64,000 nucleotides of DNA from an uncultured Gemmatimonadales bacterium (GCA_963850905.1 CAWKMU010000003.1:2272001-2336000), one strand, 5' to 3'; numbered from the stretch's first letter, positions 4,525 through 21,108 are shown. Translations and numbers: made by a program. Notes: a model not told the origin generated them from the letters alone.

Positions 4525-6405
4525 CTACGGGCTATTGCCGTGTGGGAAAGACCCGGCCGGGGATTTCGCACTCGTCGGGCGGGACCGCACACCCGCGCTT
4601 GGCACGATCGGCGAAATGGACTGAGGTCCGGCGGGCCGCGCCATCCCCTCGTCGGCACCTCGATCGGCGCCGTCCGAGGCGGGAGTCGGTTCGGCCTGGG
4701 TCTGCCTCGAGGGGGCAGGTGCCTGGCTTGAATCCGCAGGCGAGTTGCTGGGATTAGGGGCCGCGCTCGACTGGGACTGAACCGTCGTGTCCGAGTCGGT
4801 GTTGCCAACGGAATCTGCGCCCGTGGATCCAGGCGCGGGTGCTGCGACCGAGGCCGTCGAATCCGTATCGTCAGGTTCGCCCTGCCCGGTACTCGGATGC
4901 GATCGATGGTGGGTGGCCGCAACGGCGATGAGCCCCACAACAACGACGGCAGCGATAGCAGCCGCAATGCGTCGCGCTCCTGGCCGGTGCCACCAGGGCA
5001 AGAATGAATCGGAGTCGAAGCCCCCGTCCAGCGCCGCGACGTCCGAGGTGAGCACGAGATCGGCTCGCGGGAACACCTTGGGCCGAGACCGAATGGGTCC
5101 GGTCAGTGCCGCGGCCTCGGGGAACTCTGACTCCCATGTCGGAACGCTGCTCGTAGCCTCGGGATTCTCTACGTTGCCCGTGGCCGTGGCCTCCGATGCG
5201 GTGGGACGTGTGACCTCGTCGGGGGCTGCGACCGGAACGGTGTCGATCGGTTCCGCCGGAGGCGTCTCGATGACCGAGTGGTCGTGCGGCTGCGTGTCGG
5301 GCTCCTCGTGCACGAGACCGAGCGTGATCGGAGCCGGACGATCGTCCGGCTCTGCCTCGACGTCGAGGAACGGCAGCATTGGCAGCACCGAGTCTTCGGT
5401 CTTTGCCGGCACCAGCGGGCTCGGGTCTTCAGTGGCGTAGAATCGCTCGGATGGTGCTGGCTCCCCCCGTAGGCGCGTGTCGATCGGCTCGCGTAGGTCA
5501 GCCGGCTCCGGCTCGTTGACTCGCCCAGGTATGGCGGCGGGCTGCGATCCATCGACCGGCTCCAAAGTGTCGGCCGCCTCGAGAGCGTCGGCCGGCTCGA
5601 GAGCGTCGGCCGGCTCGAGAGCGTCGGCCGGCTCGAGAGCGTCGGTCGCCTCGAGAGCGTCGGCAGCCACGAGAGCGTCGACCCGGTCTTCGGTCTCGAC
5701 TGGGGCCACTGTGCCGAGCGCCTCCGGGTCGTCGGGGGCGAGGCCCTGCCTGATGGGCGGCGCCGGGTCCCGCGTTTCGGACCCACTCGTCCCACTCGGG
5801 GCGGGCAGATTGAGCTCGATATCGAGGCCAATGTCGATTGGGAGATATGACGGCGTGGCATTTGGCTCGAGGTCAGCGGGATCGAGGTCTGACCCTGTTT
5901 TTGGGCGCACCTCCACGGCCCCGTCTTCCCTGGTGTCTCCAGGCGCACCTTGCCCCGCTTGATCTGGCCTCGGCCAAGTGTCTGAGGTCAGCCACGAAGG
6001 CTTGGAGACGGCACTCTCCTTTTCGGCCCCGGTTGGGTCAGCGGTGGGAGCATCGCTTGGCGGATCTGCAGGTTGTCCGGCGAAGGGGCGCCGCGCGCGC
6101 TCCAGTTCCTCCCAGGTCGGATCGCGCCCGTACATATAGGCTTCGAGGACCGTCGGAAGCGAGATTCGCTCCCCGGATTCGTACAGCCGGACATGCCAGT
6201 CATCGCCGGGCGGGTCCTCGGTGACGTCCCGTGGAGACGCGTAGTAGTCGAGATAGTCTCCGCGCGCATCCTGGCCGAAGTTGAAGCGCACACTCCAGCC
6301 GGCGTGCTGGATCAGCCCCGCTCGGCGGGTTGCTGCCGCGTCGGCCGGAAGGTGGAGGTCCCACCGTGCAAAGTCGTTTTCAAAAGCCTCCACCGCTCGG
6401 TCCAT
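4525..6405 (-). CDS. Hypothetical membrane-anchored protein: compact N-terminal domain, long acidic Pro-rich linker, one TM helix, low-complexity tail
   Basis: Start MDRAVEAF follows a GGAGGG SD-like sequence; TM segment IAAAIAAVVVVGLIAVAA. Confidence 0.65.
   Translation of the reverse strand: MDRAVEAFENDFARWDLHLPADAAATRRAGLIQHAGWSVRFNFGQDARGDYLDYYASPRDVTEDPPGDDWHVRLYESGERISLPTVLEAYMYGRDPTWEELERARRPFAGQPADPPSDAPTADPTGAEKESAVSKPSWLTSDTWPRPDQAGQGAPGDTREDGAVEVRPKTGSDLDPADLEPNATPSYLPIDIGLDIELNLPAPSGTSGSETRDPAPPIRQGLAPDDPEALGTVAPVETEDRVDALVAADALEATDALEPADALEPADALEPADALEAADTLEPVDGSQPAAIPGRVNEPEPADLREPIDTRLRGEPAPSERFYATEDPSPLVPAKTEDSVLPMLPFLDVEAEPDDRPAPITLGLVHEEPDTQPHDHSVIETPPAEPIDTVPVAAPDEVTRPTASEATATGNVENPEATSSVPTWESEFPEAAALTGPIRSRPKVFPRADLVLTSDVAALDGGFDSDSFLPWWHRPGARRIAAAIAAVVVVGLIAVAATHHRSHPSTGQGEPDDTDSTASVAAPAPGSTGADSVGNTDSDTTVQSQSSAAPNPSNSPADSSQAPAPSRQTQAEPTPASDGADRGADEGMARPAGPQSISPIVPSAGVRSRPTSAKSPAGSFPHGNSP
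5560..5680. repeat. 18-bp coding tandem repeat (ADALEP), about 6.5 copies
   Basis: CTCGAGAGCGTCGGCCGG is exact at 5578, 5596 and 5614, with degenerate flanking copies. Confidence 0.9.
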
Positions 6406-6541
6406 GCACCCTCCGCCCTCGACGGGCCGCGGGCCCCGGCGGCCGCCCCCAGGGGCGGGATGCGGATGGGCCCGAATAGGGACGACCGACACATCGGACG
6501 CGGAACGAGGAGAACCGAACAGAAGCCGGCATTTTCGATGA

Positions 6542-7693
6542 CTACATCTGTTCCGTTGCCGCGGCGAGGGCGACGAAGAACGCTTCCAATTCATCGTCGG
6601 TCGTGTAGAAGTGCGGCGACACTCGAATGCCGGCACCGGGCCGATAATCCACAACCACGTCTCGTCGGGCCAGCGTCTCGACAACCGCGTGCCCGTTCGG
6701 GACGTCGAGGGTGACGGTCCCGCCACGGACCGCGGGATCCCGCGGACATGCGACAGGTATGCCCGCCGCGTCGGCGAGCTCGATCAGACGTTGCGTCTGC
6801 CGAATGGATTTGGAGCGAATGGCCGGTACCCCAATTTCGCCCACGATCTCGTACCCCGACCGCGCCGCGTATAGGGCGGGCACGGCTGGTGTGCCGTTGA
6901 GAAAACGGTAGGCGTCATCGGCATACGCGATGGCCCCGTCCTCAAAGGCAAATGGCTGGCGATGGGCCATCCACCCCGTCAACCGCGGTTCGAGAGTCGG
7001 CCACAACTCCCGCCGCACGTACAGGTAACCAGCCCCCGGTCCCCCGCACAGCCATTTGACCGAGCCGCCCGTGGCGAAGTCCACCTGTAGCGCGCCAACG
7101 TCGACGGGAACGGTGCCCGCGGACTGGTACAGATCGACGAGCACGAGTGCTCCGACCTCATGCGCACGTCGGACAATGGCTGCCAGGTCCTGGACAAAGC
7201 CACTCCTGAACACGACGTGCGAGATCGAGACGAGCCGCGTGCGCTCGTCGATAGCCTCGAGCATCGGGCCCAGCGGAACCGTCATGCCGTCCTCGGACGC
7301 AACACCGGTGATGCACGCGCCCTCTCGCTCGAGCGCATGGAAGAGATAGAGGTTCGAGGGAAAATTGATCTCTTCGGTGACGAGACGATTACGGTCGGCC
7401 GGCCAGTCGAGCGCTGACAGCACCGTGGCTTGAGCGATCGACTGGTTCTGATGCATGACGACCTCGCCCGCCCCCGCGCCAATGATTCCGCCGATGAGAT
7501 CTCCCACGGTTCGCGGCATTTCCCACCACCCTTCGCTCCAGGCCCGCACCCCGCGCGAGGCCCAGACGTCGGTGAACTCCGACAGGCGTTCGCGCGTGCG
7601 CCGCGGCATCGCGCCGAGTGAATGGCTTACGAGGTAGACCGTGCGGTCAACAATTGGAAACTCCTTCCGCCAATTCAACAGATCGTCAGTCAT
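6542..7693 (-). CDS. kynU: Kynureninase (class V PLP enzyme)
   Basis: YLVSHSLGAMP, DLYQSAG, GGSVKWLCGGPGAG, GWMAH motifs. Confidence 0.8.
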   Translation of the reverse strand: MTDDLLNWRKEFPIVDRTVYLVSHSLGAMPRRTRERLSEFTDVWASRGVRAWSEGWWEMPRTVGDLIGGIIGAGAGEVVMHQNQSIAQATVLSALDWPADRNRLVTEEINFPSNLYLFHALEREGACITGVASEDGMTVPLGPMLEAIDERTRLVSISHVVFRSGFVQDLAAIVRRAHEVGALVLVDLYQSAGTVPVDVGALQVDFATGGSVKWLCGGPGAGYLYVRRELWPTLEPRLTGWMAHRQPFAFEDGAIAYADDAYRFLNGTPAVPALYAARSGYEIVGEIGVPAIRSKSIRQTQRLIELADAAGIPVACPRDPAVRGGTVTLDVPNGHAVVETLARRDVVVDYRPGAGIRVSPHFYTTDDELEAFFVALAAATEQM

Positions 7694-7826
7694 GTCTCGG
7701 TCCTTGATTCGTATCTCGATGCGACTGCGCGAGTTGGGATATCACCCGCTAGCCTCCTGGCCCTGCCATACTTATGTTACCTCCGTGTCGCAATAGGCTG
7801 GGCCCGTCGACTAAGGTGGTCACATA

Positions 7827-9041
7827 ATGCAGGTGGGAAGGAACGCCCCATCCGGACTCCGGACGGAAGTGGATATCTTACGGGGCGTGCCCCCGATTCT
7901 TCTGGCGGCGCTCATGGTCGCGGCGTGCGCAAGCGTGGGCGCGGCGCAAATGCCGGCTCCTCAGGCGACGCTACGATATACGGTCGACTCCGTGCACCGG
8001 GAGATCGTTGTCGAGTTATCACCGCTCAACCTGCCGGCGCATGCATCCCACCACGACATCGCACAGTTGCCCCCACAGGCGCTGGTGATCCCGGTGACGG
8101 GTTGGTTCGAGGGGTACGCCGGCGAAGTCGTCGACTCCGCCGGACGTCCCATCCCGCAGACGGTGATACATCACCTCAATTTGATCGTGCCGCAACGTCG
8201 CGAGCTCTTCAGCACGATCATGCAGCGAATGGGAGCCGCTGGGGCAGAGACGGCTCCGGTCAACCTGCCAGCGGTGTTTGGCCACCCGGTGCTGGGCTAT
8301 CCCGTTCATCAGGGGGATACCCTGCTCATCACGATCATGCTGAACAACCCGACCGCGGTGACATACCACGACGCGCGCCTCCGTGTGCGCCTGCCGTATG
8401 TCCCCCGCAGCGAGTGGCCGCGCCCGATTTCGATATTTCCCTTTTACGTCGACGTGACGCCGCCCGCGGGGCAACACGACTACGATCTGCCGCCGGGTCA
8501 TTCAGAGAAGAGCTGGGAGGGCCGTCCAGCCGTGTCGGGCCGAATGCTGGCGGTCGGTGGCCACTTGCACCAGTACGGGGTTGGGCTTCGATTCGAGGAC
8601 GTCACGACCGGTCGAGTGCTCTGGCAGACTGCGCCGATCACCGACGGAGCGGGACACGTGATCGGGTTCCCCACGAAGAAGTTCTGGTGGCGGTTCGGAG
8701 TGCCGCTATTCCCTGACCACACGTATCGCTTAACGGCGGTGTACGACAATCCGACGGGTCATACGATTCCTGACGGCGCGATGGGGACGCTGGGCGGAGT
8801 GTTTTTGCCACACGACATGGATCGATGGCCACCAGTCGATCGGACCACGGCGGAGTACCAGCGAGACGTAGTGGTGACGTACGACACCCGGATGGCAGAC
8901 ATGGATGACATGCATGGCATGGATCGATCGCCGAGGACGCAGCCCGCGGCACCGGGCGCGGCCGCGGAGACGCACGCGGGCATGCGCGAGGGCATGCTCA
9001 ACCCCAGCATTCCCACTCGACGCCCAGCCCAGACCCCGTGA
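7827..9041 (+). CDS. Exported protein resembling copper type II (PHM/DBH-like) monooxygenases; start may be GTG 7869
   Basis: Signal peptide; HH (VIHHLNL), HxH (GGHLH) and downstream Met (DGAMG) in the order of PHM copper ligands; Met/His-rich tail; GTGA overlap with the next gene. Confidence 0.5.
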   Translation: MQVGRNAPSGLRTEVDILRGVPPILLAALMVAACASVGAAQMPAPQATLRYTVDSVHREIVVELSPLNLPAHASHHDIAQLPPQALVIPVTGWFEGYAGEVVDSAGRPIPQTVIHHLNLIVPQRRELFSTIMQRMGAAGAETAPVNLPAVFGHPVLGYPVHQGDTLLITIMLNNPTAVTYHDARLRVRLPYVPRSEWPRPISIFPFYVDVTPPAGQHDYDLPPGHSEKSWEGRPAVSGRMLAVGGHLHQYGVGLRFEDVTTGRVLWQTAPITDGAGHVIGFPTKKFWWRFGVPLFPDHTYRLTAVYDNPTGHTIPDGAMGTLGGVFLPHDMDRWPPVDRTTAEYQRDVVVTYDTRMADMDDMHGMDRSPRTQPAAPGAAAETHAGMREGMLNPSIPTRRPAQTP

Positions 9042-10312
9042 AATCCAGCGCCCAGCCCGCCGCTCCCGCTGCGGCTTTCCAGCGACCGCGATCGGCCGAG
9101 ACCGCGGAGACGCCCCAGTCGATCGCGCACGCGGGCGACGTGTTCACGAAGGCCCAACAGTTCACTCGTCTGCGCGAAGTGCAGGCGATGGGGCTCTACC
9201 CGTATTTCGTGCCAGTGCACGCCTCGGGCTCGACCGAAGTCATCATCAACGGCAAGCGCGGCGTGATGGTCGGCTCGAACAACTACCTGGGCCTCAGTCA
9301 CGACCCACGGGTGGTGGCGGCTGCCCAGGACGCGATCACCAAGTACGGGACCGCGTGTACCGGTAGCCGCTTCCTGAATGGCAACACGGAGTTGCACGAG
9401 ACGATCGAGTTCCGCCTGGCGAAGTTGACCGGGAAAGAGGCGGCGCTCGTCTTCTCCACCGGCTTCCAGACCAACCTCGGCGTGATTTCGGCGCTCGTCG
9501 GTCGCGACGATGCGGTGTACATCGATAAGCTCGACCACGCGAGCGTCGTGGACGGGTGCCGTCTGGCGGCCGGCGACACTGTCCGCTTCCGGCACGGCGA
9601 TCTCGACGAGCTCGAGACGAAGCTGCGCCATGCCCGTTCAGGCGGGAAGTTGATCGTCGTGGACGGCGTGTTCAGCATGGAAGGCGATATCGTCGATCTG
9701 CCGCGGGTGGTCGAGCTCAAAGAGCGCTACGGCGCCCGGCTGGCTGTCGACGATGCCCACGCGATCGGCGTGTTGGGAGCGACGGGTGCCGGCACGGCGG
9801 AGCATTTCGGCCTGACCGACCAGGTCGATCTGATTATCGGCACGTTCAGCAAGTCGTTCGCATCGATCGGCGGCTTTGTAGCGGGTGAACAGGTCGTGAT
9901 CGACTACCTCAAGCATCACGCGCGTGCGTTGATCTTCAGTGCGTCGATGCCCCCGTCCGCCTGCGCCGCCGTTTTGGCGAGCATCGACATCCTCGAGCAG
10001 GAGCCCGAACGCCGGCTCGCGCTGTGGAAGAACGCGGCTCGCATGCAGGAAGGGCTGCAATCGCTCGGATTCGACACCTGCGGGAGCGAGACACCGATCG
10101 TGCCGGTAGTGATCGGCGATGATCTGCTGACGTTCGAGTTCTGGCGACAGCTGTACGACAACGGGGTGTTTGCCAACCCGGTGGTCGCGCCCGCCGTGCC
10201 GGCTCATGCCGCGCGGATTCGAACGTCCTACTCGGCGACGCATACGCCGGAGCAGCTCGACTTCGTGCTCGACGTCTTCGCGCGGGTCGGGAAGGGGCTG
10301 GGGGTCATCTGA
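9038..10312 (+). CDS. spt: Serine palmitoyltransferase-like alpha-oxoamine synthase
   Basis: GLYPYF, GSNNYLGL, GSRFLNG, DDAH, GTFSKSFASIGGF (PLP Lys); adjacent bCerS- and CerR-like genes favour Spt over BioF/Kbl. Confidence 0.8.
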   Translation: MKSSAQPAAPAAAFQRPRSAETAETPQSIAHAGDVFTKAQQFTRLREVQAMGLYPYFVPVHASGSTEVIINGKRGVMVGSNNYLGLSHDPRVVAAAQDAITKYGTACTGSRFLNGNTELHETIEFRLAKLTGKEAALVFSTGFQTNLGVISALVGRDDAVYIDKLDHASVVDGCRLAAGDTVRFRHGDLDELETKLRHARSGGKLIVVDGVFSMEGDIVDLPRVVELKERYGARLAVDDAHAIGVLGATGAGTAEHFGLTDQVDLIIGTFSKSFASIGGFVAGEQVVIDYLKHHARALIFSASMPPSACAAVLASIDILEQEPERRLALWKNAARMQEGLQSLGFDTCGSETPIVPVVIGDDLLTFEFWRQLYDNGVFANPVVAPAVPAHAARIRTSYSATHTPEQLDFVLDVFARVGKGLGVI

Positions 10313-10349
10313 GCGGTCGACGCGCCGGGCCTCTCCGTCGGAGGCTCCG

Positions 10350-11477
10350 CTGATCGACGTCGCCCCAGTCCGCTCCGGTGCAGAGCGGCGGGAGTTTATA
10401 GAGCTGCCATACCGGCTCTATCGCGATGATCCGCTCTGGGTGCCGCCGCTGCGGCGCGACGTGGCAGATCTATTGAACCCCCGCCATCCCTTTCATCAGC
10501 ACGCGCAGGTCGAGCTATTCCTCGCGCGTGACGATCGGGGACGCATCGTCGGCCGGATTGCTGCTGCAAAGAACGACGCCCATCTGGCTCAGCATCACGA
10601 CGGCGCGGGATTCTTCGGCTTCTTCGAGACGGAGCGAGATCCCGCCATCTCACCGACGATGTTCGACGCGGCCGCCACGTGGCTGCGTGAACGTGGCCTG
10701 ACCGTCATGCGCGGACCCGCCAGCTTTTCGGTGAACGAGGAGTGTGGGCTGTTGGTCCGCGGGTTCGATACGCCTCCTGCCCTCATGATGCCTCACAATC
10801 CGCCGTGGTACGCGGACGTTATCGAGGGCTATGGCTTCGCCAAGGCGAAAGACCTGATTGCGTACTGGCTACCTGATGCGCAGGTGCCCGAGCGCGTGGA
10901 ACGCGTGGCTGACGCGCTCGCGAAGCGGCATGAGATCGTGATTCGTCCGCTCAACATGAAGGATTTCGACGCCGAGGTTGCGCGCATCCGGTCACTGTAC
11001 AACGAGGGGTGGCAGGCGAACTGGGGCAACGTCCCAATGACGGATGCCGAGTTCACGCACATGGCGAAGCAGTTCAAGCCTGTCGCGGTGCCTGGAATGG
11101 TGCTCTTCGCTTATGTCCGAGGCAAGCTCGCTGGGTTCGCCTTGGCCCTGCCTGACTTCAACGTCGCGTTGCGCCACATGAAGGGCCGCCTCCTCCCCTT
11201 CGGGTGGGCGCTCGCTCTGTGGTACCAGCGAAAGATTGACCGGGGCCGCGTACTGACCCTCGGCGTGTTGCCGCAGTTTCAACGGACCGGCGCTGCCGAT
11301 CTCCTCTATCTCACGCTCATCAAGAACGCGAAGGCCAAAGGATTCGTCTGCGGCGAGGCGTCGTGGATTCTCGAGGACAACGCGCTCATGCGGGTGCCGA
11401 TCGAACGGGTGGGCGGCGAGGCGTACAAGACGTACCGCTTGTACGACAAGGCGATCGGAGCTCCGGCATCGCGTTGA
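10350..11477 (+). CDS. Bacterial ceramide synthase-like GNAT acyltransferase; proposed CTG start
   Basis: FIELPYRLYRDDPLWVPPL, GRIAA, GFFGFFE, NEECGLLVRGF, MMPHNPPWY, EASWILEDN, YKTYRLY are typical of the bCerS family; GGAGG at 10340-10344. Confidence 0.75.
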   Translation: MIDVAPVRSGAERREFIELPYRLYRDDPLWVPPLRRDVADLLNPRHPFHQHAQVELFLARDDRGRIVGRIAAAKNDAHLAQHHDGAGFFGFFETERDPAISPTMFDAAATWLRERGLTVMRGPASFSVNEECGLLVRGFDTPPALMMPHNPPWYADVIEGYGFAKAKDLIAYWLPDAQVPERVERVADALAKRHEIVIRPLNMKDFDAEVARIRSLYNEGWQANWGNVPMTDAEFTHMAKQFKPVAVPGMVLFAYVRGKLAGFALALPDFNVALRHMKGRLLPFGWALALWYQRKIDRGRVLTLGVLPQFQRTGAADLLYLTLIKNAKAKGFVCGEASWILEDNALMRVPIERVGGEAYKTYRLYDKAIGAPASR

Positions 11478-11489
11478 TCACCCGCGCCC

Positions 11490-12470
11490 GTGAATGATGT
11501 GCAGCCAGTCGAGGCGGTCGTCACGGGCGCGACCGGGTTTGTCGGCAGCCATCTGGTCGAGGCGCTCCTCGCTCGCGGTGATCGAGTCCGATGCCTGACG
11601 CGCCCCACGAGCGACCGTCGTTGGCTCCCGCCGCAGGTCACGCAGATTCCCGGTAGCCTGGACGACGTCGACACACTCGCGAAGGCGGTCGCCGGCGTCG
11701 ACGTGGTCTACCACTTGGCGGCCGTCACCTCGACCGCACACCCCGCGGACTACGACCACACGAACCGCGGCGGGGTCGTCCGCCTCCTCACAGCGCTCGC
11801 CGCGCGGGCGCCTGCCGCCCGGCTCGTGTTCTGCTCCAGTCTCGCCGCCGGAGGCCCAGCCCGCGCGGGACGTCCGCTAACGGAAACCGATCCACCGTCG
11901 CCCGTCGGTCCCTACGGCGTCTCGAAGGCTCGGGCTGAGCAGGAGATCGCAACGGCTCGCATCGACGCGGTGATCATCCGCCCTCCGGCCGTCTATGGTC
12001 CCCGTGACCGCGATGTGCTCGCGGCGTTTCGCCTGGCATCGCGTGGTCTTGCGGTGCGGACTGGCCCGCCCGCGCAGCAGCTCGCGCTGGTGCACGTGGC
12101 AGACCTGGTGCGCGCGCTCGTGAGCGCAGGCTACACACCTCGTGCGAACGGCCTCTATTACGTGAACGGCGGAAATCACAGCTGGGAGGACATCGTCTCC
12201 GCAATGGGCGATGCGGTCGGGCGGCGCCCTCGCGTCATCCCGGTGCCGGCGCCGTTCGTGCGCGGTGCCGGGCACGCCGCCCGGATCTGGGCGCGCATCA
12301 CGGGCGCAAAACCGTTGCTGACCCCGGAACGCTCGTGGGATCTCGTCCAGCAATCCTGGACATGTGATGATGCCCGCGCGCGCGGCGACCTGCACTACCA
12401 ACCACAGGTCGGACTCGCCGAGGGAATGCGCGTGACCGCTGCGTGGTATCGCGAGCAGGGCTGGCTCTAG
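11490..12470 (+). CDS. NAD(P)-dependent extended SDR, probable ceramide reductase (CerR-like)
   Basis: TGATGFVG nucleotide-binding motif, YGVSK catalytic motif, RPPAVYGPRD; position after spt and bCerS. Confidence 0.7.
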   Translation: MNDVQPVEAVVTGATGFVGSHLVEALLARGDRVRCLTRPTSDRRWLPPQVTQIPGSLDDVDTLAKAVAGVDVVYHLAAVTSTAHPADYDHTNRGGVVRLLTALAARAPAARLVFCSSLAAGGPARAGRPLTETDPPSPVGPYGVSKARAEQEIATARIDAVIIRPPAVYGPRDRDVLAAFRLASRGLAVRTGPPAQQLALVHVADLVRALVSAGYTPRANGLYYVNGGNHSWEDIVSAMGDAVGRRPRVIPVPAPFVRGAGHAARIWARITGAKPLLTPERSWDLVQQSWTCDDARARGDLHYQPQVGLAEGMRVTAAWYREQGWL

Positions 12471-12486
12471 GGCCGCGGTTGCTTCC

Positions 12487-13533
12487 TCACGATTCCGTCG
12501 GGCTACCGCGGGCTGGCTGCGGCTTGGTCGGTTGGCCGCGTTTGAGTACCAATGCCACGGTGAGACCGATCCCGATCCAGGCCAGCTCCCGGAGCCGCGT
12601 GATCACGCCGGTATAAACTCCCAGTGCTGGTGACAGCCCCAGCAACGAGTACGCGAAGGTGATGCCGCCTTCTCGAGATCCGAGCTCGAAGGGCACGAAG
12701 ATGAACAGGATGATGGCCAGCTGCGAGATCGCACCGATGAGAAAGGCGGTGGCGTAGCTGATGCGAAGGCCTTCAGTGTGTGCGACGATGTAGAACTCGA
12801 GCATCGCGATACATCGCCCGAGGACCTCGAACAGCACCGCCACGATGAGGCGAGGTCGCTCGCCAACCGTCAGTTCCGCCATCTGCTCATCGATGTGCGC
12901 GAGCGTATGACGAAAGCGTTCGGCGCGCGGCGCCAGACGTCGGAGCAGTGGGAGGTGGTGGAGTGCGTCGAGCGCTCGCTCCACGAATCCATGGCGAAAG
13001 AGGAGGAGGAGGAAACAGCACACCCCGATGAGCACGAGCCCCGTCACGAGCAGCACCACCCGTACGGCCACCGTGTGCGGCAGCAGGATCCACCCGATGG
13101 GAAGTGCGAGGAGCCAGAAGATCATCTGTCCGAGGGTGTGCGTCACCCGGAAGCTGACAACCGAGGCTGCCGCGCGGTCGGGTCCAATCCAATCGGCGGC
13201 TTGCGCGAGCTTGAGCGGCTCGCCCCCGAGCGCCACAAAGGGCGTCGCGTAGTTGATCGCGAAGCTCGCGACGCTGATGGCGTACGCCTGAAGAAAGGGG
13301 ATGCGATCGTGGGTTCCGCCGCGGCCTTGTCGGGCGGCCGTCGCACCGATGAGCGCGGACCACGCGATCGTATTGCTGACGTACACGACGGCCCAGACAC
13401 CCACGATGGCCAAGAACGCCCATCGGGCATGCTGCAAGGTCGCGATGAGGCCACCGACACCGGCCTGTAGGACCAGGACGACGAAGAAGATGAGACCCGC
13501 GACGAGAATGAGCAGTCGCGCCGCGCGGCTCAT
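12487..13533 (-). CDS. Lysylphosphatidylglycerol synthase TM-domain / flippase-like membrane protein
   Basis: About 8 TM helices; FAINYATPFVALGGEPLK and PFELGSREGG motifs. Confidence 0.8.
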   Translation of the reverse strand: MSRAARLLILVAGLIFFVVLVLQAGVGGLIATLQHARWAFLAIVGVWAVVYVSNTIAWSALIGATAARQGRGGTHDRIPFLQAYAISVASFAINYATPFVALGGEPLKLAQAADWIGPDRAAASVVSFRVTHTLGQMIFWLLALPIGWILLPHTVAVRVVLLVTGLVLIGVCCFLLLLFRHGFVERALDALHHLPLLRRLAPRAERFRHTLAHIDEQMAELTVGERPRLIVAVLFEVLGRCIAMLEFYIVAHTEGLRISYATAFLIGAISQLAIILFIFVPFELGSREGGITFAYSLLGLSPALGVYTGVITRLRELAWIGIGLTVALVLKRGQPTKPQPARGSPTES

Positions 13534-13542
13534 CGGCGTGTG

Positions 13543-14625
13543 TTAGTCGAGGGTGACTCGGGTGCCGGTCGCGGCGGCGGTGTACGCGGCCTCGAGCACG
13601 CGCGCGACGCGGTCGATTTCATCGAGCGCTTCCGGGGCGCCGCCCCGGTCGAGGGCATCCGCGAAGGTTCCGAAGAGCGCGGCAAACCAACCGGCGTAGG
13701 ATCGTTTGTCCAGCTGCGATGAGAAATCGAGTGGCTCGCCCGGGTGCCCGGCGCGTTCCAGGGTGAGGACCCCACCCTGCCAGTCGATGCTGCCCCGATC
13801 GCCGATGAATCGCACGCGATTCTCGCGGTGTGTGGCGGCCCACGTCAACATCATCGTCGCGATGCGGTCTGGAAACTCGATGATGAGCTCCGCCGTGTCC
13901 TCAACACTATACTCACGATGGCGCAACCGGCCGGTCCATGCACGAACAGCCGTGGGCATCGCACCGGCCGCGTCGAGCAGCGAATACAGCAGGTGTGTGC
14001 CGTGGTCGAGCAGGATCCCGCCGGCTCCCTCGGCCGCGACTGTGCGCCACGGGCGCGCCGCTTCGCTGCGCCCCGCATCCGCCGCAGGGCGATACACCGA
14101 GAGTTCGGCGAGGTGCCAGTGCCCAATCACACCGTCGCGCAGCCAGCGTTGCATCTGTTGCCAGGCTGGGTTGAAGCGGTGCTGATGACACGGTATCACG
14201 ATGCGCTGTGCCCGACGGGCAGCCACCGCGATCGCACTTGCCTCGGCGCGTGTGGTCGCGACTGGCTTCTCGCACAACACGTGCAGCCCATTGTCCAGGG
14301 CCCATAACGTCGTGGCGAGATGGAGACCGGTCGGCGTGCATACGTCGACGAAATCGATCGGGGCAAACGCGTTCAGGCCTCCCCGATCCGGGATGACCGG
14401 GATATCCGCGTCGCCCTGCGCACCCGGGGCCGGGTCGACCGCGACCACGATCGCCAGCCGCTCTCGCAGGCGAGGATCCTGGCGCGCGCCCGGAAGGTGG
14501 GAGTTGCGCGCCACCCCTCCAAACCCGATGAGCGCCCCACGGTACACGTCGCGCGTTACCGCCGAACGGTGAACCGCCCCGCTGCGCGGCGCGGGCGCGG
14601 ACGCGCCCGCGACGGCATCACTCAC
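13543..14625 (-). CDS. Gfo/Idh/MocA-family NAD(P) oxidoreductase
   Basis: LIGFGGVA, HVLCEKP, GGILLDHGTH; GTG start overlaps the upstream stop. Confidence 0.85.
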   Translation of the reverse strand: MSDAVAGASAPAPRSGAVHRSAVTRDVYRGALIGFGGVARNSHLPGARQDPRLRERLAIVVAVDPAPGAQGDADIPVIPDRGGLNAFAPIDFVDVCTPTGLHLATTLWALDNGLHVLCEKPVATTRAEASAIAVAARRAQRIVIPCHQHRFNPAWQQMQRWLRDGVIGHWHLAELSVYRPAADAGRSEAARPWRTVAAEGAGGILLDHGTHLLYSLLDAAGAMPTAVRAWTGRLRHREYSVEDTAELIIEFPDRIATMMLTWAATHRENRVRFIGDRGSIDWQGGVLTLERAGHPGEPLDFSSQLDKRSYAGWFAALFGTFADALDRGGAPEALDEIDRVARVLEAAYTAAATGTRVTLD

Positions 14626-15616
14626 CGCCAATGGCGCGAGCGGGAGCCGCCGGGGAGGCGGACCGGGTGCGATCCAAGACACGCAGCGCGTTGTCCGCCC
14701 CGCGTTCCTGCGCGTGAATCAGCCAGAGCAAGATCGCGTTCATCGGTGCGATGGTCATCCACAGCAAGCCGGCCGGCCATCCGGCAACTGCAGTGACGCC
14801 CAGAATGATGAACCGGAAGTTCTGACCGAGCCACGCGCAGTGTCTGAGCAGCGGCGCGACCTCGGCCCGGTAGTAGCCGGCGGCCGGTCCCCGACCCTCT
14901 TGCCGCGTGGCGCGCAGCAGCGCGACGGTGCGGGGAAACATGCTCGCCTGTCGACGGTTGTACGTCTCGTATATCCGTACGCCGACGCGACGCAGCCACG
15001 ATCCGTTGCCGAACTGCCTCGTCGCGCCTTCCATATCGAGCTCGCTGCCCCGTCCGACGGCCAACGCCAGGAAAGCGTGGCGGATGAAGTCGATCGCCGA
15101 GCTCTGAAAGGACTGGCTGACCGCTGCCGCAGTGACCAGTGCAGTCGCCCCGAGCCAGCTCCAGTGCTGCGCCAGGACGAGGCGAATGAGCAGGTGCACG
15201 GCTAGATTGATGAACCGCGCGGCGTCCGAGGTGCCATCCAGGATGCGACCGAGTGGCGTCGACGTCCCCCGGAGGCGTGCAAGCTGCCCATCAGCGCTGT
15301 CAAAGATGTCGGAGATGATGAAGAGCACGAACCCGGTCGCATTGAGCCAGGGACTCGCGTACACGAACAGATGGCCGGCGACGAGGCCAATGAGGAGACT
15401 CAGGAACGTGACCTGATCCGCCGTGACCCACGTCCGCGACAACCGGTGCGCGATGCGGGCACCGATGGGGCGGAAGAAGTGAAGATCGAGCCACTCCTCG
15501 ACCTCGTCGCCCTTCGTCGCGAGGGGATTGGCGCCCGGACCGGGTAACCGCGGGTCTGGGCGGGTATGAAGCGCGGGGCGGCGGGACCGGCCCGACGCCG
15601 TCGAGCAATGCGTCAT
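14618..15616 (-). CDS. CDP-alcohol phosphotransferase
   Basis: Signature DIFDSADGQLARLRGTSTPLGRILDGTSD. Confidence 0.9.
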   Translation of the reverse strand: MTHCSTASGRSRRPALHTRPDPRLPGPGANPLATKGDEVEEWLDLHFFRPIGARIAHRLSRTWVTADQVTFLSLLIGLVAGHLFVYASPWLNATGFVLFIISDIFDSADGQLARLRGTSTPLGRILDGTSDAARFINLAVHLLIRLVLAQHWSWLGATALVTAAAVSQSFQSSAIDFIRHAFLALAVGRGSELDMEGATRQFGNGSWLRRVGVRIYETYNRRQASMFPRTVALLRATRQEGRGPAAGYYRAEVAPLLRHCAWLGQNFRFIILGVTAVAGWPAGLLWMTIAPMNAILLWLIHAQERGADNALRVLDRTRSASPAAPARAIGGE

Positions 15617-17004
15617 GCCCCGATCCGCTCCGCCGTTTCCTGCAGGACCTGCTTCATCGTTGCAAGCGCTTCCATCGCCTCAGCCTCGCGGATGACCAGC
15701 GGCGGATTGATCCGCACCTCTGGATTGTAGATCATCGCCAATACCCCGCGACTCAGCAGCGTGTCGAAGATCCACCGCGTCTGATCCTTGGGCAGTAGTC
15801 GGTCGGTCCCTGGAACGACCAGATCCATCCCGATCATGAGACCGCGCCCGCGCACGCCGTGCACGATGGGGATCGTCCGTTCCCACGATTTCATCTCGGC
15901 GAGCATTCGCGCACCGAGGGACCGACTGTGCTCGACCAGTCCTTCCTCGAGAATCGTCTCGATGGCCACGCGCGCAGCCGCGGCGGCGAGCGGGTTGCCG
16001 CCATAGCTCGACGAGCTCCCGCTCGGATTGGCCCACGGCTTCGCGTGGGCCACGGTCTCGCGGGCGATCAGTCCGGTCATCGGGAAGCCGCCGCCGAATC
16101 CCTTGCCGATCGTCATGATATCGGGCACGATCGCGTCATGCTCGACCGCGAACATGGTGCCGGTGCGACCGAATCCCGTGAGCATCTCGTCCGCGATGAG
16201 CACTGCACCGATCTTGTCCGCGAGTGCCCGGAGGACGCGCAGATAGCCGGGCGGTGGCACGATGTTCCCGGCGGTACCCTGAATCGGTTCGACGATGATC
16301 GCCGCGACGTCGTTCGTCGTCTCGAGCTCGATCTTGCGACGGAGAAACTCGACGCAGTGCCACTCGCACGACGGGAACGTCTTGTCGAAGGCACACCGAG
16401 CGCACGACGCGTACGGCGCGCTGTACTCTCCCGGCATGAGCGGCCCGAGCGCGTGCTTGAAGTTCGATCCGAGCAAAGGGAGCACGCCCGCCGTCTTGCC
16501 GTGAAACCCGCCCCAGAAGCCGATGACCTCGGTCTTCCCCGTATAGGACTTTGCCAGCCGCAACGCGGATTCGACCGCTTCCGCTCCGCTGCTGTACAAC
16601 TGAGTGCGCGAGAGGTCGCCGGGCGTCACCTCGGCGATCAGCTTGACGAGCGCCGCGCGGTTCTCCGACGTGAAGCTGCCGACGTGGATCCGCGCCACCT
16701 GCCGCTGGACCGCGGCAACAAATTTGGGGTGGGCGTAACCCAGGCTCGCCACGCCGACGCCTGCGAGCAAGTCGATGTACCGCTTGCCGTCCACGTCAAC
16801 CAGCACCGCCCCCTCGCCGTGGTCGATGCACAGCTTGCTGAAGAGCGCGACGCTCTGGGTGCCCGGCGCGAGGAACTCCGCCTCAGCATCAAACAGGGCT
16901 ACGGACCGGGGACCGGCGGCACGCGGCGGTGTGGGCGGGGTCGTCGGGCGAAGTCGGGGCTCGGCGAGCGCCGTCGGTTGCTGCGTCACGTTGCGGATAC
17001 TCAA
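15613..17004 (-). CDS. Class III PLP-dependent aminotransferase
   Basis: SGAEAVE, FHGKT, IIVEPIQG, IADEMLTGFGRTG, DIMTIGKGFGGG. Confidence 0.9.
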   Translation of the reverse strand: MSIRNVTQQPTALAEPRLRPTTPPTPPRAAGPRSVALFDAEAEFLAPGTQSVALFSKLCIDHGEGAVLVDVDGKRYIDLLAGVGVASLGYAHPKFVAAVQRQVARIHVGSFTSENRAALVKLIAEVTPGDLSRTQLYSSGAEAVESALRLAKSYTGKTEVIGFWGGFHGKTAGVLPLLGSNFKHALGPLMPGEYSAPYASCARCAFDKTFPSCEWHCVEFLRRKIELETTNDVAAIIVEPIQGTAGNIVPPPGYLRVLRALADKIGAVLIADEMLTGFGRTGTMFAVEHDAIVPDIMTIGKGFGGGFPMTGLIARETVAHAKPWANPSGSSSSYGGNPLAAAAARVAIETILEEGLVEHSRSLGARMLAEMKSWERTIPIVHGVRGRGLMIGMDLVVPGTDRLLPKDQTRWIFDTLLSRGVLAMIYNPEVRINPPLVIREAEAMEALATMKQVLQETAERIGA

Positions 17005-17900
17005 GCGGGAGAGTGGGACAGATGGGACGCGGCGTAGGCCGCGATATGACGGGCGGCTTCCGCGCGGAAGGGCGCGAAACTCGGCCAGTCGTTGAGATCG
17101 ATCAGCACCGGCTCATCACGTGCCGGCAAGGCGACATCGCCGCCAAAAACATCGAGTCTCAGCTCCTGCGCCGCCGCGAAAGCTAGCGCGCGCAAACGCT
17201 CCTCGTCGACGTCGGGACGTGGACCGCCGGGACCGGCGTCGGCGCCATAATACTGGAAGAACTGCCCGTCGGCGACTCCATAGAACTTGACAACGGGCCC
17301 CGGGACATGCTCCTGCAGCGCAACGCGCGCAATGCCGCGACCCCCGAATGCCGCGATGGCGTGGCGCAGGTCGTCGCGCGTCACCGCGACGACGTCCGCC
17401 GCGCATTCGGCGTGGACATCTCCGCGCTTCACCCAGACTGCCCGCCCGTCGGCTCCGAAGCCATCGAGCTCCGGATCGCCCGCCGTAGCGACGACCGCCG
17501 TGCGTGGAAAGGCGACCCGTCGGTGGGCGAGGATATTCACCAGGCGGTGGCGATGGCACCCGAGCACGCTCGACGGGCGATTGATGAGGCGCACCCCCGA
17601 CGCTTCGGCCTCGAGGAGGCGCTCGGAGGCATCCGGACCCTGGCACATGTTGAGCACGACGTCCGCACCGCGAAGCACATCCGCGGACAGAGTCCCTCGG
17701 ACGACGTCGGACTCGGATGCGCGGGTGGTGAGCCAACCCAGTTCCTCGAGGCACGCGACCGTGGCGTCCAGAATCGCCTCATCGTTCGCGCGGTGTTGAT
17801 TGGGCGAATATGACGGCTGACGGTACAGCGCGACCGCTCGCTGGCCCGTGGCCATCACGGGCTTCGACCCGGGCGAGCCGTCCAAATTGCGCTCACTCAT
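17001..17900 (-). CDS. ATP-grasp fold protein, possible inositol-phosphate-kinase-like enzyme
   Basis: WVKRGD, LQEHVPG, VKFYGV, DVFGGDV, IDLNDWPSF. Confidence 0.6.
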   Translation of the reverse strand: MSERNLDGSPGSKPVMATGQRAVALYRQPSYSPNQHRANDEAILDATVACLEELGWLTTRASESDVVRGTLSADVLRGADVVLNMCQGPDASERLLEAEASGVRLINRPSSVLGCHRHRLVNILAHRRVAFPRTAVVATAGDPELDGFGADGRAVWVKRGDVHAECAADVVAVTRDDLRHAIAAFGGRGIARVALQEHVPGPVVKFYGVADGQFFQYYGADAGPGGPRPDVDEERLRALAFAAAQELRLDVFGGDVALPARDEPVLIDLNDWPSFAPFRAEAARHIAAYAASHLSHSPA

Positions 17901-18633
17901 CCTCTGCCCCGAGCCATGCGTTTGCGAGCTCCAAGTCCTGTCGGCGGTCGACGTCGACGATGCGTGTCACCTCGACCGTCGCGACGCGTGCGCCTTCGTC
18001 GACGAGCCGGCTGAGGAAGCCGCGCATTCGGCTGATGCCTTCACGCCGCGCACGAGCTGCCTCTGCGCGCGCAGCGACGCCGAAGGCGTAGACGCCGCCC
18101 GTCACGCACGGCGGTGACGCGGGCGCGTCGCCGAGGCGTCGCACGATACCTGCCGGGTCGCGCTCGACCCACAACGGTCGTTCGTCGTCGACGAAGGGGG
18201 TGACGGCAAGGACGGCGTCCGCACCGGCGGCGAGCAAGTCGGTCGCCGCCGTGTACACGACATGCCAATCCCGGTTTCGCATCACGGTGTCCACCATCGT
18301 GCAGAACACGTCCCCTGGGGGCACGGTCGCCAACCCGTCGACGAGCGTATGCAGCGAGGATGGCGTGCGGCATAGCACCACACGCACCGCGGTCGACCCG
18401 AGCTCCGCCACCCCATCGAGCAGGGCCCGCATGCCATGCGCCGCGCTCGCGCTGGCGTCCCCGGCGCTGTCGCGCAGCATGCAGGTGATCGTCGGGCAGC
18501 CCAGGTCGTGCAGCGTCCCAACGAGACGTACCAGCTGCGGCCGACCAGCGATCGCGACCGCGGCTTTGGGTCCATCGACGCCGTCGGCGGCAAGGCGCGA
18601 CCCCGTGCCCCCGGCCAGAATCAAGCCATGCAT
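17893..18633 (-). CDS. NTP transferase (nucleotidyltransferase)
   Basis: GLILAGGTGSRL...PKA N-terminal motif; IVDVDRRQDL C-terminal motif. Confidence 0.85.
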   Translation of the reverse strand: MHGLILAGGTGSRLAADGVDGPKAAVAIAGRPQLVRLVGTLHDLGCPTITCMLRDSAGDASASAAHGMRALLDGVAELGSTAVRVVLCRTPSSLHTLVDGLATVPPGDVFCTMVDTVMRNRDWHVVYTAATDLLAAGADAVLAVTPFVDDERPLWVERDPAGIVRRLGDAPASPPCVTGGVYAFGVAARAEAARARREGISRMRGFLSRLVDEGARVATVEVTRIVDVDRRQDLELANAWLGAEDE

Positions 18634-19379
18634 CGCTGTCGTCCCGCGTGGGTCGACGCGCCAGCCGTCTCGAGGACGGCCGTGAGCTGCGCTAAGGATT
18701 CGAGTCGGACTGTCGGGGGGACACCCGGCGGCACCGCGCGATCAGCCGGTGTCAGCCACGCGGTGCGCATGCCCAACTGCTGCGCCGGTCGAATGTCGGC
18801 CTGGAAATTGTCGCCGACCATCCAGGCTCGGTCAGGCGGTACGCCCAACGCCTCCAACGTGGTCGTGAACGGGAGCAGGTCGGGCTTCGCGGTCCCGAGG
18901 ACCCCCGAGTCCGTGACGACGTCGAACAAATCGGCGATCGCCACCTCTTCGAGGCATGGGCGCAGATTTCCAGTGAAGTTCGACACCACGCCGAGGCGAT
19001 AGCGCGTGCGCAACGCGGCCAGGATGGGTCGGTTGCGCGCGATCACCGCTACCGCGTCGCCGTGAACTCGATCAGCTATATCATGCACATCCATCGCGGA
19101 TCCGTCGGGAAGCAAGGTACAGAGAATCGCGGCCTGAGCGTCGATCATGCCGCGCAGGCCGAGGGCACGAATGCCCGTGTGCGTCTCGAGACGGCGGTCC
19201 GACAGGCTGAACAACGGATCAAATGCCTCAAAACTGAGGCGACCGCCGCCGCGCGCGTATGCCGCGTGGAATCGGACACTCCAGCGCACGCCATCGGCGT
19301 CCAGCGTACCGCCAAAATCGAATAACACCGCACCGCGAGAGTCCCTCGCGCGCTCATCACCAGCATCGACCAGGACCAC
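18621..19379 (-). CDS. HAD-family hydrolase (DxG motif I variant)
   Basis: VLFDFGGTLD, VVSNF, KPD, MVGDNFQADI; start placed at the GTG downstream of the predicted promoter. Confidence 0.85.
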   Translation of the reverse strand: MVLVDAGDERARDSRGAVLFDFGGTLDADGVRWSVRFHAAYARGGGRLSFEAFDPLFSLSDRRLETHTGIRALGLRGMIDAQAAILCTLLPDGSAMDVHDIADRVHGDAVAVIARNRPILAALRTRYRLGVVSNFTGNLRPCLEEVAIADLFDVVTDSGVLGTAKPDLLPFTTTLEALGVPPDRAWMVGDNFQADIRPAQQLGMRTAWLTPADRAVPPGVPPTVRLESLAQLTAVLETAGASTHAGRQRCMA

Positions 19380-19427: not shown

Positions 19428-20099
19428 GCGCTTCCGGCGTCGAACTATACACGTGAGTAGGGACGATCGGCCGGCCACCCAGCGCACGTCGCCGTTACGG
19501 AAGCCGGTTTCGTCGTTACACGGCGCCGCGGGATCGTGCACGATCGACCGGCGCCGACGGCGAGCGCGATCTCGGCGTGCCGGCGCCTGATTCGGGATCA
19601 CGCCGAGCTGCGGCGCAACCCACGGCGTGCCTGCGTCGGCGGCATGCCACCACGCAAGCTCGCCGCTGTTTCACCACGCGCGCCCGATCGCACGTCGTAA
19701 CACGTGTCGTCCGGGGGGGTGATACGGATTGCGGCGTCCGTGCCACAACGGGCGTCAGTAGCTCTCGCAATCCGCGTGAGCCTGGGCAGCCTGCAATGTA
19801 TGAATTGGCGACAGCGTCGGGGACCCCGGCCCGTAGACCCGCGGAATGGGCCTTCGCTCAAAAAGCGCTTTCGGCGGCTCGCGTTTCCTCGGGTCAACTC
19901 GCCGCCCTCCCGGACGGCCCCGTTGCTGCAAAAGGGAGGGCAAAACCGGCGCGAGCCGGGTGTGGCACAGGAGGGCTGGCGTGGACGGCTGGCTGTCCGT
20001 GCTGGCAATCCCGCTGTCCCTCGAGACCGCGAGCGATATGGCTCGCGTTGTTGTCGGAACCCTCACACCGCGAGCGTTGGCATGACACGGTGCACAACG

Positions 20100-20672
20100 A
20101 TGGCACGTCGGGCTGCGGTGACGCTGGTTGAGGTCATGATCGTGCTCACGATCATTGGGATCGGCTCCGCCGTCGCGCTATGGAAACTCGACATCGCGTC
20201 ATACCAAACCATGGGTGACATGCAGGCTATTGGGTCGGCGTTGATCGCGGCCCAGCGGCAAGCCATCGCGCATCAATGCAACGTGATCGTCACGTTCGAT
20301 ACGACCGCGCGGGTAGTCCACTTGATCGTGGACGCGAATAACAACGGGTTGCAGGACCCGGGCGAGCACGAGACGGCGTATGCGCTCGGCGATCGCGTGC
20401 GATTCAGCATGGGGGCGACGCCAGTCGGTGACGTCGGCGCCGGGCCGATCACCTTCAGCAACACGACGAACGGTCTGCCCTCGGTGACGTTCTTCCGCAA
20501 CGGGGCCGCGAGCCAGGCTGGCGGCGTCTACATCACGTCAATGCGTGAGGCGATCACCAACGATCCGCAGTATGCTGGCCAGACACACATGGTCGAGGTC
20601 GCGCGCGCCACCGGCCGCGCCGACTGGTGGCACTACGACCCCGGCACCGCCGTCTGGGTGAGGGGGTTCTGA
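20100..20672 (+). CDS. FimT/GspH-like minor pilin
   Basis: MARRAA|VTLVEVMIVLTIIGI pilin helix with Glu5; VTFFRNG motif. Alternative ATG at 20082. Confidence 0.8.
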   Translation: MARRAAVTLVEVMIVLTIIGIGSAVALWKLDIASYQTMGDMQAIGSALIAAQRQAIAHQCNVIVTFDTTARVVHLIVDANNNGLQDPGEHETAYALGDRVRFSMGATPVGDVGAGPITFSNTTNGLPSVTFFRNGAASQAGGVYITSMREAITNDPQYAGQTHMVEVARATGRADWWHYDPGTAVWVRGF

Positions 20673-21076
20673 TGACGACGACACAGAATCGCTCCGGCTT
20701 CTCGCTGGTCGAGGTGATGGTGGCGCTGGTCATTCTCACCATCGTCGTCGCCGGACTCGCGGGCACGACGGTCACCTTCCAGCACCAGATGTCGCTCGGT
20801 CAGATCGAAGCGCGGGCCCAGGCCGTTGCCAACTCGCAGCTCGCGCAGATTCGCGCGTATCCGGACTACACCCAGCTGGCGACGTTCGCGGGCACGCAGA
20901 CCAACTACCCGACGACCGGGTGGTCACTGCAGACGCAGGTGATTCGTGACACGTCTGCAGTCACCGACTGTGTCACCCCGCCATGCGCCAACAACAATGT
21001 CACCCGCATCATGGTGAGTGTGACGGCGCCTGGGCTGTCGTTGCCCGTCGCGCTGTCGTACTCCATCGCGCCGTAG
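20672..21076 (+). CDS. PilV-like minor pilin
   Basis: RSG|FSLVEVMVALVIL; TGATG coupling with the upstream gene. Confidence 0.8.
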   Translation: MTTTQNRSGFSLVEVMVALVILTIVVAGLAGTTVTFQHQMSLGQIEARAQAVANSQLAQIRAYPDYTQLATFAGTQTNYPTTGWSLQTQVIRDTSAVTDCVTPPCANNNVTRIMVSVTAPGLSLPVALSYSIAP

Positions 21077-21108
21077 TGGCTCGAGCCGTGAGCATCCTGG
21101 AGGCCGTG

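Follow-up and report, generated by a model that had tools for sequence, protein, structure and literature searches.

A convergent ceramide and head-group gene cluster in an uncultured Gemmatimonadales bacterium points to an inositol-derived, possibly aminated, phosphosphingolipid

What lipid would a bacterium make when its ceramide genes run head-on into an operon for a phosphorylated head group? The question is raised by eleven genes at positions 7827 to 19379 of a 64,000-nucleotide stretch of DNA, hereafter the window, from an uncultured Gemmatimonadales bacterium (GCA_963850905.1, CAWKMU010000003.1:2272001-2336000). A preliminary description of the window had read them as a ceramide operon converging on a novel head-group operon, and had guessed the phylum, rightly, as Gemmatimonadota; the closest relatives are Gemmatimonadales and other Gemmatimonadota. 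All eleven open reading frames are present without internal stops. The first two of the four plus-strand genes (7827-9041 and 9038-10312) overlap by 4 bp, and the minus-strand genes overlap, in order from a HAD phosphatase gene to a Gfo/Idh/MocA dehydrogenase gene, by 13, 8, 4, 4 and about 8 bp, with a 9 bp gap before a last, LPG-synthase-like gene. The two operons converge with their ends 16 bp apart, and in all these respects the layout described earlier was borne out. GC content is 0.66 and 0.67 for the two operons and 0.66 for the genome, and in the absence of any contrast a recent foreign origin of the cluster was rejected. Pfam and NCBIfam assign families to nine of the eleven genes; the remaining two, a copper protein and an ATP-grasp protein, have no Pfam match and were assigned by fold with AlphaFold2 and Foldseek. 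From these genes and their relatives we propose that the minus-strand operon may well add amino-deoxy-inositol phosphate to ceramide, yielding a zwitterionic inosamine-phosphoceramide.

The plus-strand operon very likely makes ceramide or dihydroceramide, judging by the homology of three of its genes. The product of 9038-10312 has the SPT structures 8guh and 3a2b as its closest PDB matches (E 1e-125, the next family following at 1e-89). In a 22-row IQ-TREE phylogeny it falls in a clade of ten (support 97/95) with sequences from Sphingomonas, the E. coli ygh locus and Bacteroides (B. finegoldii), with Kbl and BioF outside; the reference sequences were called Spt by context and similarity, and HemA was left out of the tree. 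The protein carries TFSKS and PAVP motifs, the latter of a type (PATP/PACA/PAVP) named among Spt substrate motifs in the accessible part of PMC10865984, and the Kbl and BioF rows have TLGK, TFGK or TLSK. Its top NCBIfam model, SerpalmtaseCFB for Bacteroidota Spt, scores 520 bits against a cut-off of 640, and two other Spt models score 407 of 500 and 330 of 670; these models are lineage-specific, and the BioF and Kbl cut-offs are likewise not reached. Assignment as BioF or Kbl, which the preliminary description had proposed to check by phylogeny, is rejected by the tree, the motifs and the presence of separate Kbl-like and BioF-like paralogs in the genome. One BioF-like gene (C3:1347399-1348566, C3 being the contig that holds the window), adjoining a BioA-like gene, is spread across two frames, reflecting a frameshift or an assembly error.

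The next two genes encode a bCerS-like GNAT protein (10350..11477, plus strand; the likely start is a CTG at 10350 after GGAGG, and the longest open frame begins at 10170) and a CerR-like extended SDR (11490..12470, plus strand). The GNAT protein is 36% identical to an N-acetyltransferase of a Sphingomonas sphingolipid locus (E 8e-76), for which it is the sole match in the genome, and 36% identical to E. coli YghO; a single-sequence PDB search with it returned no match. The SDR is 34% identical to the NAD(P)H-binding protein that adjoins acyl carrier protein (ACP) and Spt genes in Sphingomonas (E 2e-38, best in the genome). Both E-values pass the E 1e-30 threshold used in the accessible part of PMC11334938. 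Homology to bCerS and CerR was judged against the Sphingomonas locus. Its layout agrees with that of the Caulobacter region described in the part of PMC11324152 that was available; on this ground we read it as a ceramide region and carry the names bCerS and CerR over to the Sphingomonas genes. No other genes in this genome match the Sphingomonas locus better than Spt, GNAT and SDR, which also match the E. coli ygh locus. Rubrobacter has Spt, GNAT and SDR genes in the same order, and bCerS homologs are found in 132 of 201 sampled Gemmatimonadota.

These ceramide genes are thus new members of a known pathway, with the same three enzymes as in Caulobacter and Sphingomonas. Unlike in those organisms, the cluster has no dedicated ACP, acyl-CoA synthetase or LptFG2, its Spt is nearer the Bacteroidota type, and a PHM-like gene heads the operon. 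Variants of the pathway were encountered elsewhere. In two other genomes bCerS homologs are paired with an oxoamine synthase that lies outside the Spt clade and has the TLSK motif (G073:C9:333361-339175 and G005:C105:11363-14546), in the first within a 1649-residue open frame; such pairs possibly represent a polyketide synthase-like or non-serine sphingolipid route. On plasmid 1 of the actinobacterium Rubrobacter radiotolerans (6914-12506) an Spt-bCerS-CerR-like operon is followed by an LTA synthase family gene, and records from Streptomyces and Nonomuraea hold similar pairs.

The seven minus-strand genes encode a HAD phosphatase (18621..19379, start uncertain; PF00702/PF13419), a nucleoside triphosphate (NTP) transferase (17893..18633; PF12804), the ATP-grasp protein with ITPK1-like motifs (17001..17900), a class III pyridoxal phosphate (PLP) aminotransferase (15613..17004; PF00202, E 1e-94), a cytidine diphosphate (CDP)-alcohol phosphotransferase (14618..15616; PF01066), a Gfo/Idh/MocA NAD(P) dehydrogenase (13543 to about 14625, start inferred; PF01408/PF22725) and a predicted flippase of the LPG_synthase_TM family, MprF/AglD/HpnL-like (12487..13533; PF03706, E 7e-26). 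We compared the best 80 loci of at least 492 relatives, which came from at least 600 candidate stretches in species-representative genomes. Partner genes were the aminotransferase in 78 of these loci, the NTP transferase in 77, the HAD phosphatase in 74, the CDP-alcohol transferase in 71, the Gfo protein in 68 and the flippase-like gene in 61, and the losses are nearly all at contig ends. All seven genes are visible in 58 loci, and because order and strand are identical in 58 of 58 the arrangement is not due to chance. The operon is patchy, being carried by 26 of the 201 genomes in the phylum sample (27 ATP-grasp matches less one weak match at E 4e-11; a second weak copy in another genome was also dropped). 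In one locus (L041) the ATP-grasp ortholog (54% identity) stands apart from the module, whose other genes are all missing from the 10 kb before it and the 2 kb after it.

By orthology this operon is an expanded variant of a cluster already proposed in Bacteroidota. Five of its genes (HAD, NTP transferase, ATP-grasp, CDP-alcohol transferase and LPG-synthase-like) are reciprocal best hits of genes in the clusters of Parabacteroides distasonis, Prevotella nigrescens and B. finegoldii; identity is 26-34% for the four besides ATP-grasp. The HAD protein (E 2e-28) has a DxGGTxD motif conserved in 120 rows; the NTP transferase match has E 3e-32; the CDP-alcohol transferase (E 2e-40), with AF2299 as its best PDB match, has an intact DSADGQLAR..G...D...D motif; and the LPG-synthase-like protein, with at least six hydrophobic segments, matches its B. 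finegoldii counterpart at E 5e-44. A distant homolog of the ATP-grasp protein was found in Parabacteroides, Prevotella and Bacteroides between the NTP transferase and CDP-alcohol transferase genes, in clusters that also have HAD, in some cases an LPG-synthase gene and, in two of the three, an inositol-3-phosphate synthase; the cluster of P. distasonis has no adjacent synthase and none occurs on its 375 kb record, as would be consistent with a kinase that salvages inositol. These clusters are of the Phocaeicola vulgatus/Prevotella type that Heaver et al. (2022; PMC9246714, plus preprint) called an alternative inositol lipid cluster, and species with it make inositol phospho-dihydroceramide without the B. 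thetaiotaomicron genes, according to the accessible text of that paper, which leaves the unannotated gene corresponding to the ATP-grasp ortholog undiscussed. The preliminary description had noted that similar genes were proposed for Bacteroidota inositol lipids, and its word "novel" holds for the class III aminotransferase and Gfo/Idh/MocA dehydrogenase added here, and for the junction with Spt, bCerS and CerR, but not for the five orthologous genes. An adjacent inositol-phosphate synthase, one mark of the alternative cluster, is absent from the operon here, and exceptions exist in Bacteroidota too.

In other lineages the neighbours of this module are often lipid transporters: MlaE/F/D, MlaA, MlaC and MMPL. 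In four loci (L089, L091, L112 and L144) MlaE, MlaF and MlaD genes separate the NTP transferase gene from the ATP-grasp gene, and in L089 an extra gene at that place weakly matches the ATP-grasp protein. In four others (L146, L087, L117 and L114) the module lies beside MMPL and MlaC, radical SAM/SPASM, LytB or DXP synthase genes, which hints at a hopanoid or isoprenoid setting.

That the head group is derived from inositol seems probable from these orthologs and from the company kept by the two added enzymes. The aminotransferase is 68-98% identical across 78 of the 80 Gemmatimonadota-type loci, with PLP motifs conserved in 103 rows, and it scores below the cut-off of every NCBIfam model among the matches listed. 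The CEKP and D-H-G-T-H motifs of the Gfo protein are conserved in at least 95% of 85 rows, and its best PDB match, 3q2i (E 2e-17), is described only as a "dehydrogenase". Metagenome loci found with distant homologs (the best 80 of 589 confirmed) carry the module in either of two forms, one plain and mostly Bacteroidales-like, the other with both added genes. Aminotransferase and Gfo genes occur together in 24 of these loci, and the Gfo gene never occurs alone; the aminotransferase occurs alone in 16, all of which end within 277 bp of the gene. An inositol-phosphate synthase lies beside the module on the same strand in 12 of the 24 paired loci, and 9 of the other 12 have less than 1.6 kb left downstream. 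Among all 80 loci the synthase is counted in 24, a weak match in L121 (25% identity) having been dropped. Members of the aminotransferase cluster are labelled Ignavibacteria, Melioribacteraceae, Bacteroidota and Candidatus Acidoferrum. In this genome the synthase is encoded about 70 kb from the cluster (C3:2360989-2362308), and its being missing from the operon is explained by its near-general presence in the phylum (189 of 201 genomes sampled). Directly upstream of it, outside the window, is a PgsA/PIPS-like CDP-alcohol transferase gene (together C3:2360300-2362308), which suggests a second, conventional phosphatidylinositol route.

The biosynthesis of hygromycin A offers a precedent for amination. 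In its Hyg18/Hyg25/Hyg17/Hyg8 branch a synthase, a phosphatase, a PF01408 dehydrogenase and an aminotransferase lead from inositol to inosamine; the myo-inositol dehydrogenase Hyg17 was shown in vitro and the aminotransferase Hyg8 was proposed, the product being neo-inosamine, in the accessible part of PMC10949010. That branch yields an antibiotic rather than a lipid, and the operon here is likened to it by enzyme families; of the Hyg enzymes only Hyg17 was assayed. The strict pairing of aminotransferase and Gfo genes, the synthase neighbours and this precedent together lead us to infer an amino-deoxy-inositol. The unusual head group foreseen in the preliminary description is thus supported and narrowed to an inositol derivative, probably aminated, and ceramide would be its presumed acceptor.

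Gene linkage is the evidence that bears on the acceptor. In a sample of 301 genomes from the family of this bacterium, the ATP-grasp gene is present in 16 and bCerS in 58, and all 16 carriers of the former have bCerS. One unpublished genome is included in these tallies; it is not a carrier, and no conclusion depends on it. In 13 of them, across five genera, bCerS is on the same contig within 12 kb, and in the other three the genes are on different contigs of fragmented assemblies; five further carriers all have bCerS, as do all 26 carriers of the phylum sample. Chance adjacency of ceramide genes and module is therefore rejected for the family; a naive hypergeometric P (6e-13) takes no account of kinship and carries no weight here. 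The expectation that the two operons would co-occur in relatives was upheld, and they are often linked. The convergent layout is real in this genome and is one of several arrangements among relatives: 16 loci are convergent with different spacers (16 bp or several genes), and three are tandem with the ceramide genes upstream. One-strand runs from Spt, bCerS and CerR to HAD and on to the flippase gene occur in L007-L009, and in L113 Spt and bCerS stand together with the module and the synthase. Since the arrangements differ, the linkage would have been kept or remade more than once, although kin are not independent. The L113 run (2282-14808, one strand) comprises Spt, two bCerS-like genes, a second pair of CDP-alcohol and NTP transferase genes, LysE, and then a plain module with the synthase; a single operon may here hold two head-group systems. 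Elsewhere in this genome an AUR1-like gene could move the head group from a glycerolipid to ceramide.

The AlphaFold2 model of the ATP-grasp protein (pLDDT 94.5) has an ATP-grasp fold, a single-sequence PDB search returned no match, and a search of representatives at 50% identity gave 855 matches at E of 0.001 or less. Residues invariant in 110 homologs include R27, D40, R117, K158, G201, K205, Y207, D268, N270 and P273. Profile matches include the PsnB-type ligase 7drm (E 6e-8), plant ITPK4 (E 4e-7), RimK, and human and Entamoeba ITPK1. The KFY and DLNxxPSF motifs align with plant ITPK4, in contrast to RimK and PsnB ligases, which have RCF or RVY and EVN or ELN. The Pfam family Ins134_P3_kin is hit weakly, below its cut-off, in 13 of 110 members; fold and kinase-type K and D-x-N residues thus agree with ITPK1, whereas best match and Pfam score do not place the protein in that family. 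ITPK1, which according to the accessible part of PMC6900528 occurs in eukaryotes and Asgard archaea, phosphorylates inositol monophosphate and in Asgard genomes flanks inositol-phosphate synthase genes, shares with the protein here the fold, the K-F-Y and D-x-N-x-x-P motifs and a synthase adjacency as in Lokiarchaeum; unlike ITPK1, the ATP-grasp protein has only about 16% structural identity, and counterparts of H167 and R212 are not clearly kept. Fusions of it to the NTP transferase, HAD or CDP-alcohol transferase occur in other bacteria, under the labels Elusimicrobia, Planctomycetes and Thermoanaerobaculia. In a midpoint-rooted FastTree phylogeny of 58 hand-picked loci whose downstream context is visible, versions that lack the amination pair fall among those that have it, which would fit loss of the pair in Bacteroidales. 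The protein may be a bacterial inositol or inositol phosphate kinase, at best ITPK1-like in its working and not a member of the family.

In the pathway we propose, Spt would condense serine with an acyl thioester, bCerS would N-acylate the product and CerR would reduce it, as their orthology implies. Inositol-1-phosphate would come from the synthase encoded about 70 kb away, a gene that is present and whose flux into this route is presumed. The Gfo dehydrogenase would oxidise one ring hydroxyl to give an inosose, which the class III enzyme would transaminate, acting on either the free cyclitol or CDP-inositol. In what is the weakest step, the HAD phosphatase and the ATP-grasp kinase would remove and place phosphate at the position used by the NTP transferase, which would then form a CDP-cyclitol. 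The CDP-alcohol phosphotransferase would move the cyclitol phosphate to the C1 hydroxyl of ceramide, directly or via a glycerolipid, and the LPG-synthase-like protein would flip the product. Taken whole, the following scheme is tentative: that Gemmatimonadales, Ignavibacteria and other environmental lineages make inosamine-phosphoceramide via a CDP-cyclitol, with the ATP-grasp protein as an ITPK1-like kinase shared with the cluster of Prevotella, Bacteroides and Parabacteroides and a candidate for the missing kinase for inositol taken up from outside. Tannerella forsythia makes inositol phospho-dihydroceramide only from imported inositol, and the available part of PMC4587543 reports that no inositol kinase was found.

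Several observations weigh against the inosamine-phosphoceramide. The seven head-group genes are known here from sequence alone, and the Bacteroidota alternative cluster is not confirmed in the accessible text of Heaver et al. (PMC9246714). The searches run returned no characterised close relative of the aminotransferase or the Gfo protein: the best plasmid matches of the aminotransferase reach only 31-38% identity, and two scyllo-inositol dehydrogenase entries (E 2e-9 and 1e-8) stand well below the top Gfo matches. The NTP transferase is no nearer IPCT than sugar-1-phosphate enzymes; a PDB search does not single out IPCT, which a homolog matches over the whole domain at E 1.5e-6 to 1.5e-5, with MurU, GMPP and RmlA scoring higher. 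Foldseek ranks D-Ala-D-Ala ligase first for the ATP-grasp model and ITPK1 39th, and thus does not tell kinase from ligase; the profile search puts 7drm above ITPK4, which comes second. The PgsA/PIPS-like gene and an AUR1-like PAP2 gene offer another route to an inositol lipid. As to linkage, bCerS lies within 10 kb in only 9 of the 26 phylum-sample carriers, in 19 of the 80 Gemmatimonadota-type loci (14 of the 34 with full flanks), and is adjacent in 2 of the 80 metagenome loci outside the phylum. In the main carrier family co-occurrence says little because bCerS is near universal there (96 of 97), and the count of 16 of 16 is among kin and may reflect one ancestral event.

If the acceptor is wrong, the same amino-inositol phosphate might sit on a glycerolipid, whether diacylglycerol or an alkyl glycerol in the manner of the Rhodothermus IPCT/BEPIS system, or on some other membrane alcohol. 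Heaver et al. propose diacylglycerol as the first acceptor (accessible text of PMC9246714), BEPIS is a precedent as summarised in PMC4587543 (seen in part), most loci have no ceramide genes nearby, and some lie near MlaC and MMPL, LytB or radical SAM genes in a hopanoid-like setting, the flippase itself weakly matching HpnL. We nevertheless judge this rather unlikely: in the family bCerS is rare and yet present in every one of the 16 carriers and tightly linked in 13, and the five further carriers, the one-strand runs of L007-L009 and the joint operon of L113 tell the same way. If instead the head group is wrong, a phosphoceramide could carry something other than amino-inositol, with the pair epimerising inositol or aminating a sugar or open-chain polyol nucleotide, or with the class III enzyme being a racemase or lyase. 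Matches of the latter do include racemases, epimerases and ammonia-lyases, at the Glu and Arg positions of GABA transaminases (motifs EPIQGE and FHGRT) it shows Thr and Lys, matches of the Gfo protein include sugar and nucleotide-sugar dehydrogenases, and the synthase is outside the operon here. The pair adjoins the synthase in half of the paired metagenome loci, however, and hydroxyls are usually turned into amines by just such a strict pairing of dehydrogenase and PLP enzyme, so that a different head group also appears unlikely.

We think it improbable that the ATP-grasp protein acts instead as an amide ligase, joining an amino acid or acyl group to the newly formed amine and so making an N-aminoacyl head group. 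The idea draws on top fold and profile matches to Ddl, RimK, ArgX and PsnB and on the place of the gene, which in 78 of the 80 loci immediately precedes that of the aminotransferase. Against it, orthologs with the same invariant residues occur in Bacteroidales clusters without aminotransferase and Gfo genes, a cluster type linked to plain inositol phosphoceramide in the accessible text of PMC9246714; at positions held by R and E-x-N in the aligned ligases the family shows K and D-x-N; and fusions with the NTP transferase are found in several phyla. A kinase is the more economical assignment because the gene persists in clusters that lack any enzyme to form an amine, and because elsewhere it occurs fused to NTP transferase, HAD or transferase partners. 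It is more improbable still that the seven genes make a soluble phosphodiester solute, of the di-myo-inositol phosphate kind, with the ceramide genes adjacent by accident. IPCT and DIPPS do belong to the same two enzyme families and the archaeal AF2299 is the best PDB match of the transferase, but the flippase-like gene is conserved, Mla transporters occur in other loci, the linkage to ceramide genes recurs, and the Bacteroidota products are lipids (PMC9246714, in its accessible text).

The gene that heads the plus-strand operon (7827..9041) encodes a predicted exported two-copper monooxygenase of the PHM/DBH fold. Its AlphaFold2 model has a pLDDT of 85, the top Foldseek matches are all PHM (E 4e-10), a single-sequence PDB search gave no match, and the N-terminus has a hydrophobic stretch. 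Among 97 homologs H115, H116, H246, H248 and M319 are invariant and M171 is kept in at least 90%; in PHM and DBH the CuH site has three histidines and the CuM site two histidines and a methionine, and by motif the five invariant residues look like such ligands, with Met171 apparently at the third CuH position. The gene is present in 14 of the 80 loci, preceding Spt in some of them and HAD in the rest, and two unlinked paralogs occur in the genome (C3:706781-707956 and C3:2782657-2783754). The protein is possibly a passenger or a lipid hydroxylase and was left out of the proposed mechanism. PHM-fold copper proteins of this kind, predicted to be exported and without Pfam match, form a Gemmatimonadota family with at least 410 homologs, in which Met apparently replaces the third CuH histidine. 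Around the cluster, type IV pilin/PilX-like genes lie on both flanks (window positions 42-2006 and 19704-24497), a kynureninase gene (6542-7693) diverges from the plus-strand operon, and acetoacetate-CoA ligase and HPPD genes are found at 27760-30950.

A comparable setting is that of Caulobacter, where the ceramide-phosphoglycerate (CPG/CPG2) genes CC_1152-1161 place head-group functions (nucleotidyltransferase, CDP-alcohol transferase and phosphoesterase) beside the ceramide genes. The preliminary description had taken the attachment of head groups to ceramide by those two transferases as known; the available part of PMC11324152 presents it as a scheme proposed from mutants, with the enzymes not assayed. 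The Caulobacter CPG route differs in starting with a ceramide kinase and an activation like that of CDP-diacylglycerol synthase, neither of which has a Pfam match among the eleven genes here, and in its head, which is glycerate and, in the same part of that paper, involves no aminotransferase. Literature searches, made mostly without subscription journals, found no Gemmatimonadota sphingolipid study (the Spt phylum list of PMC11334938 may include the phylum), no inosamine lipid and no paper on the ATP-grasp gene of the inositol-lipid cluster.

If the proposed pathway is correct, an unannotated gene in the inositol-lipid cluster of gut and oral Bacteroidota is given a testable function, and the predicted lipid could be detected by mass as phosphoinositol ceramide minus 0.984 Da. 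An amino group on the head would offset the negative charge that this outer-membrane lipid would otherwise carry, and a common uncultured lineage would be making a membrane lipid not yet described in bacteria.

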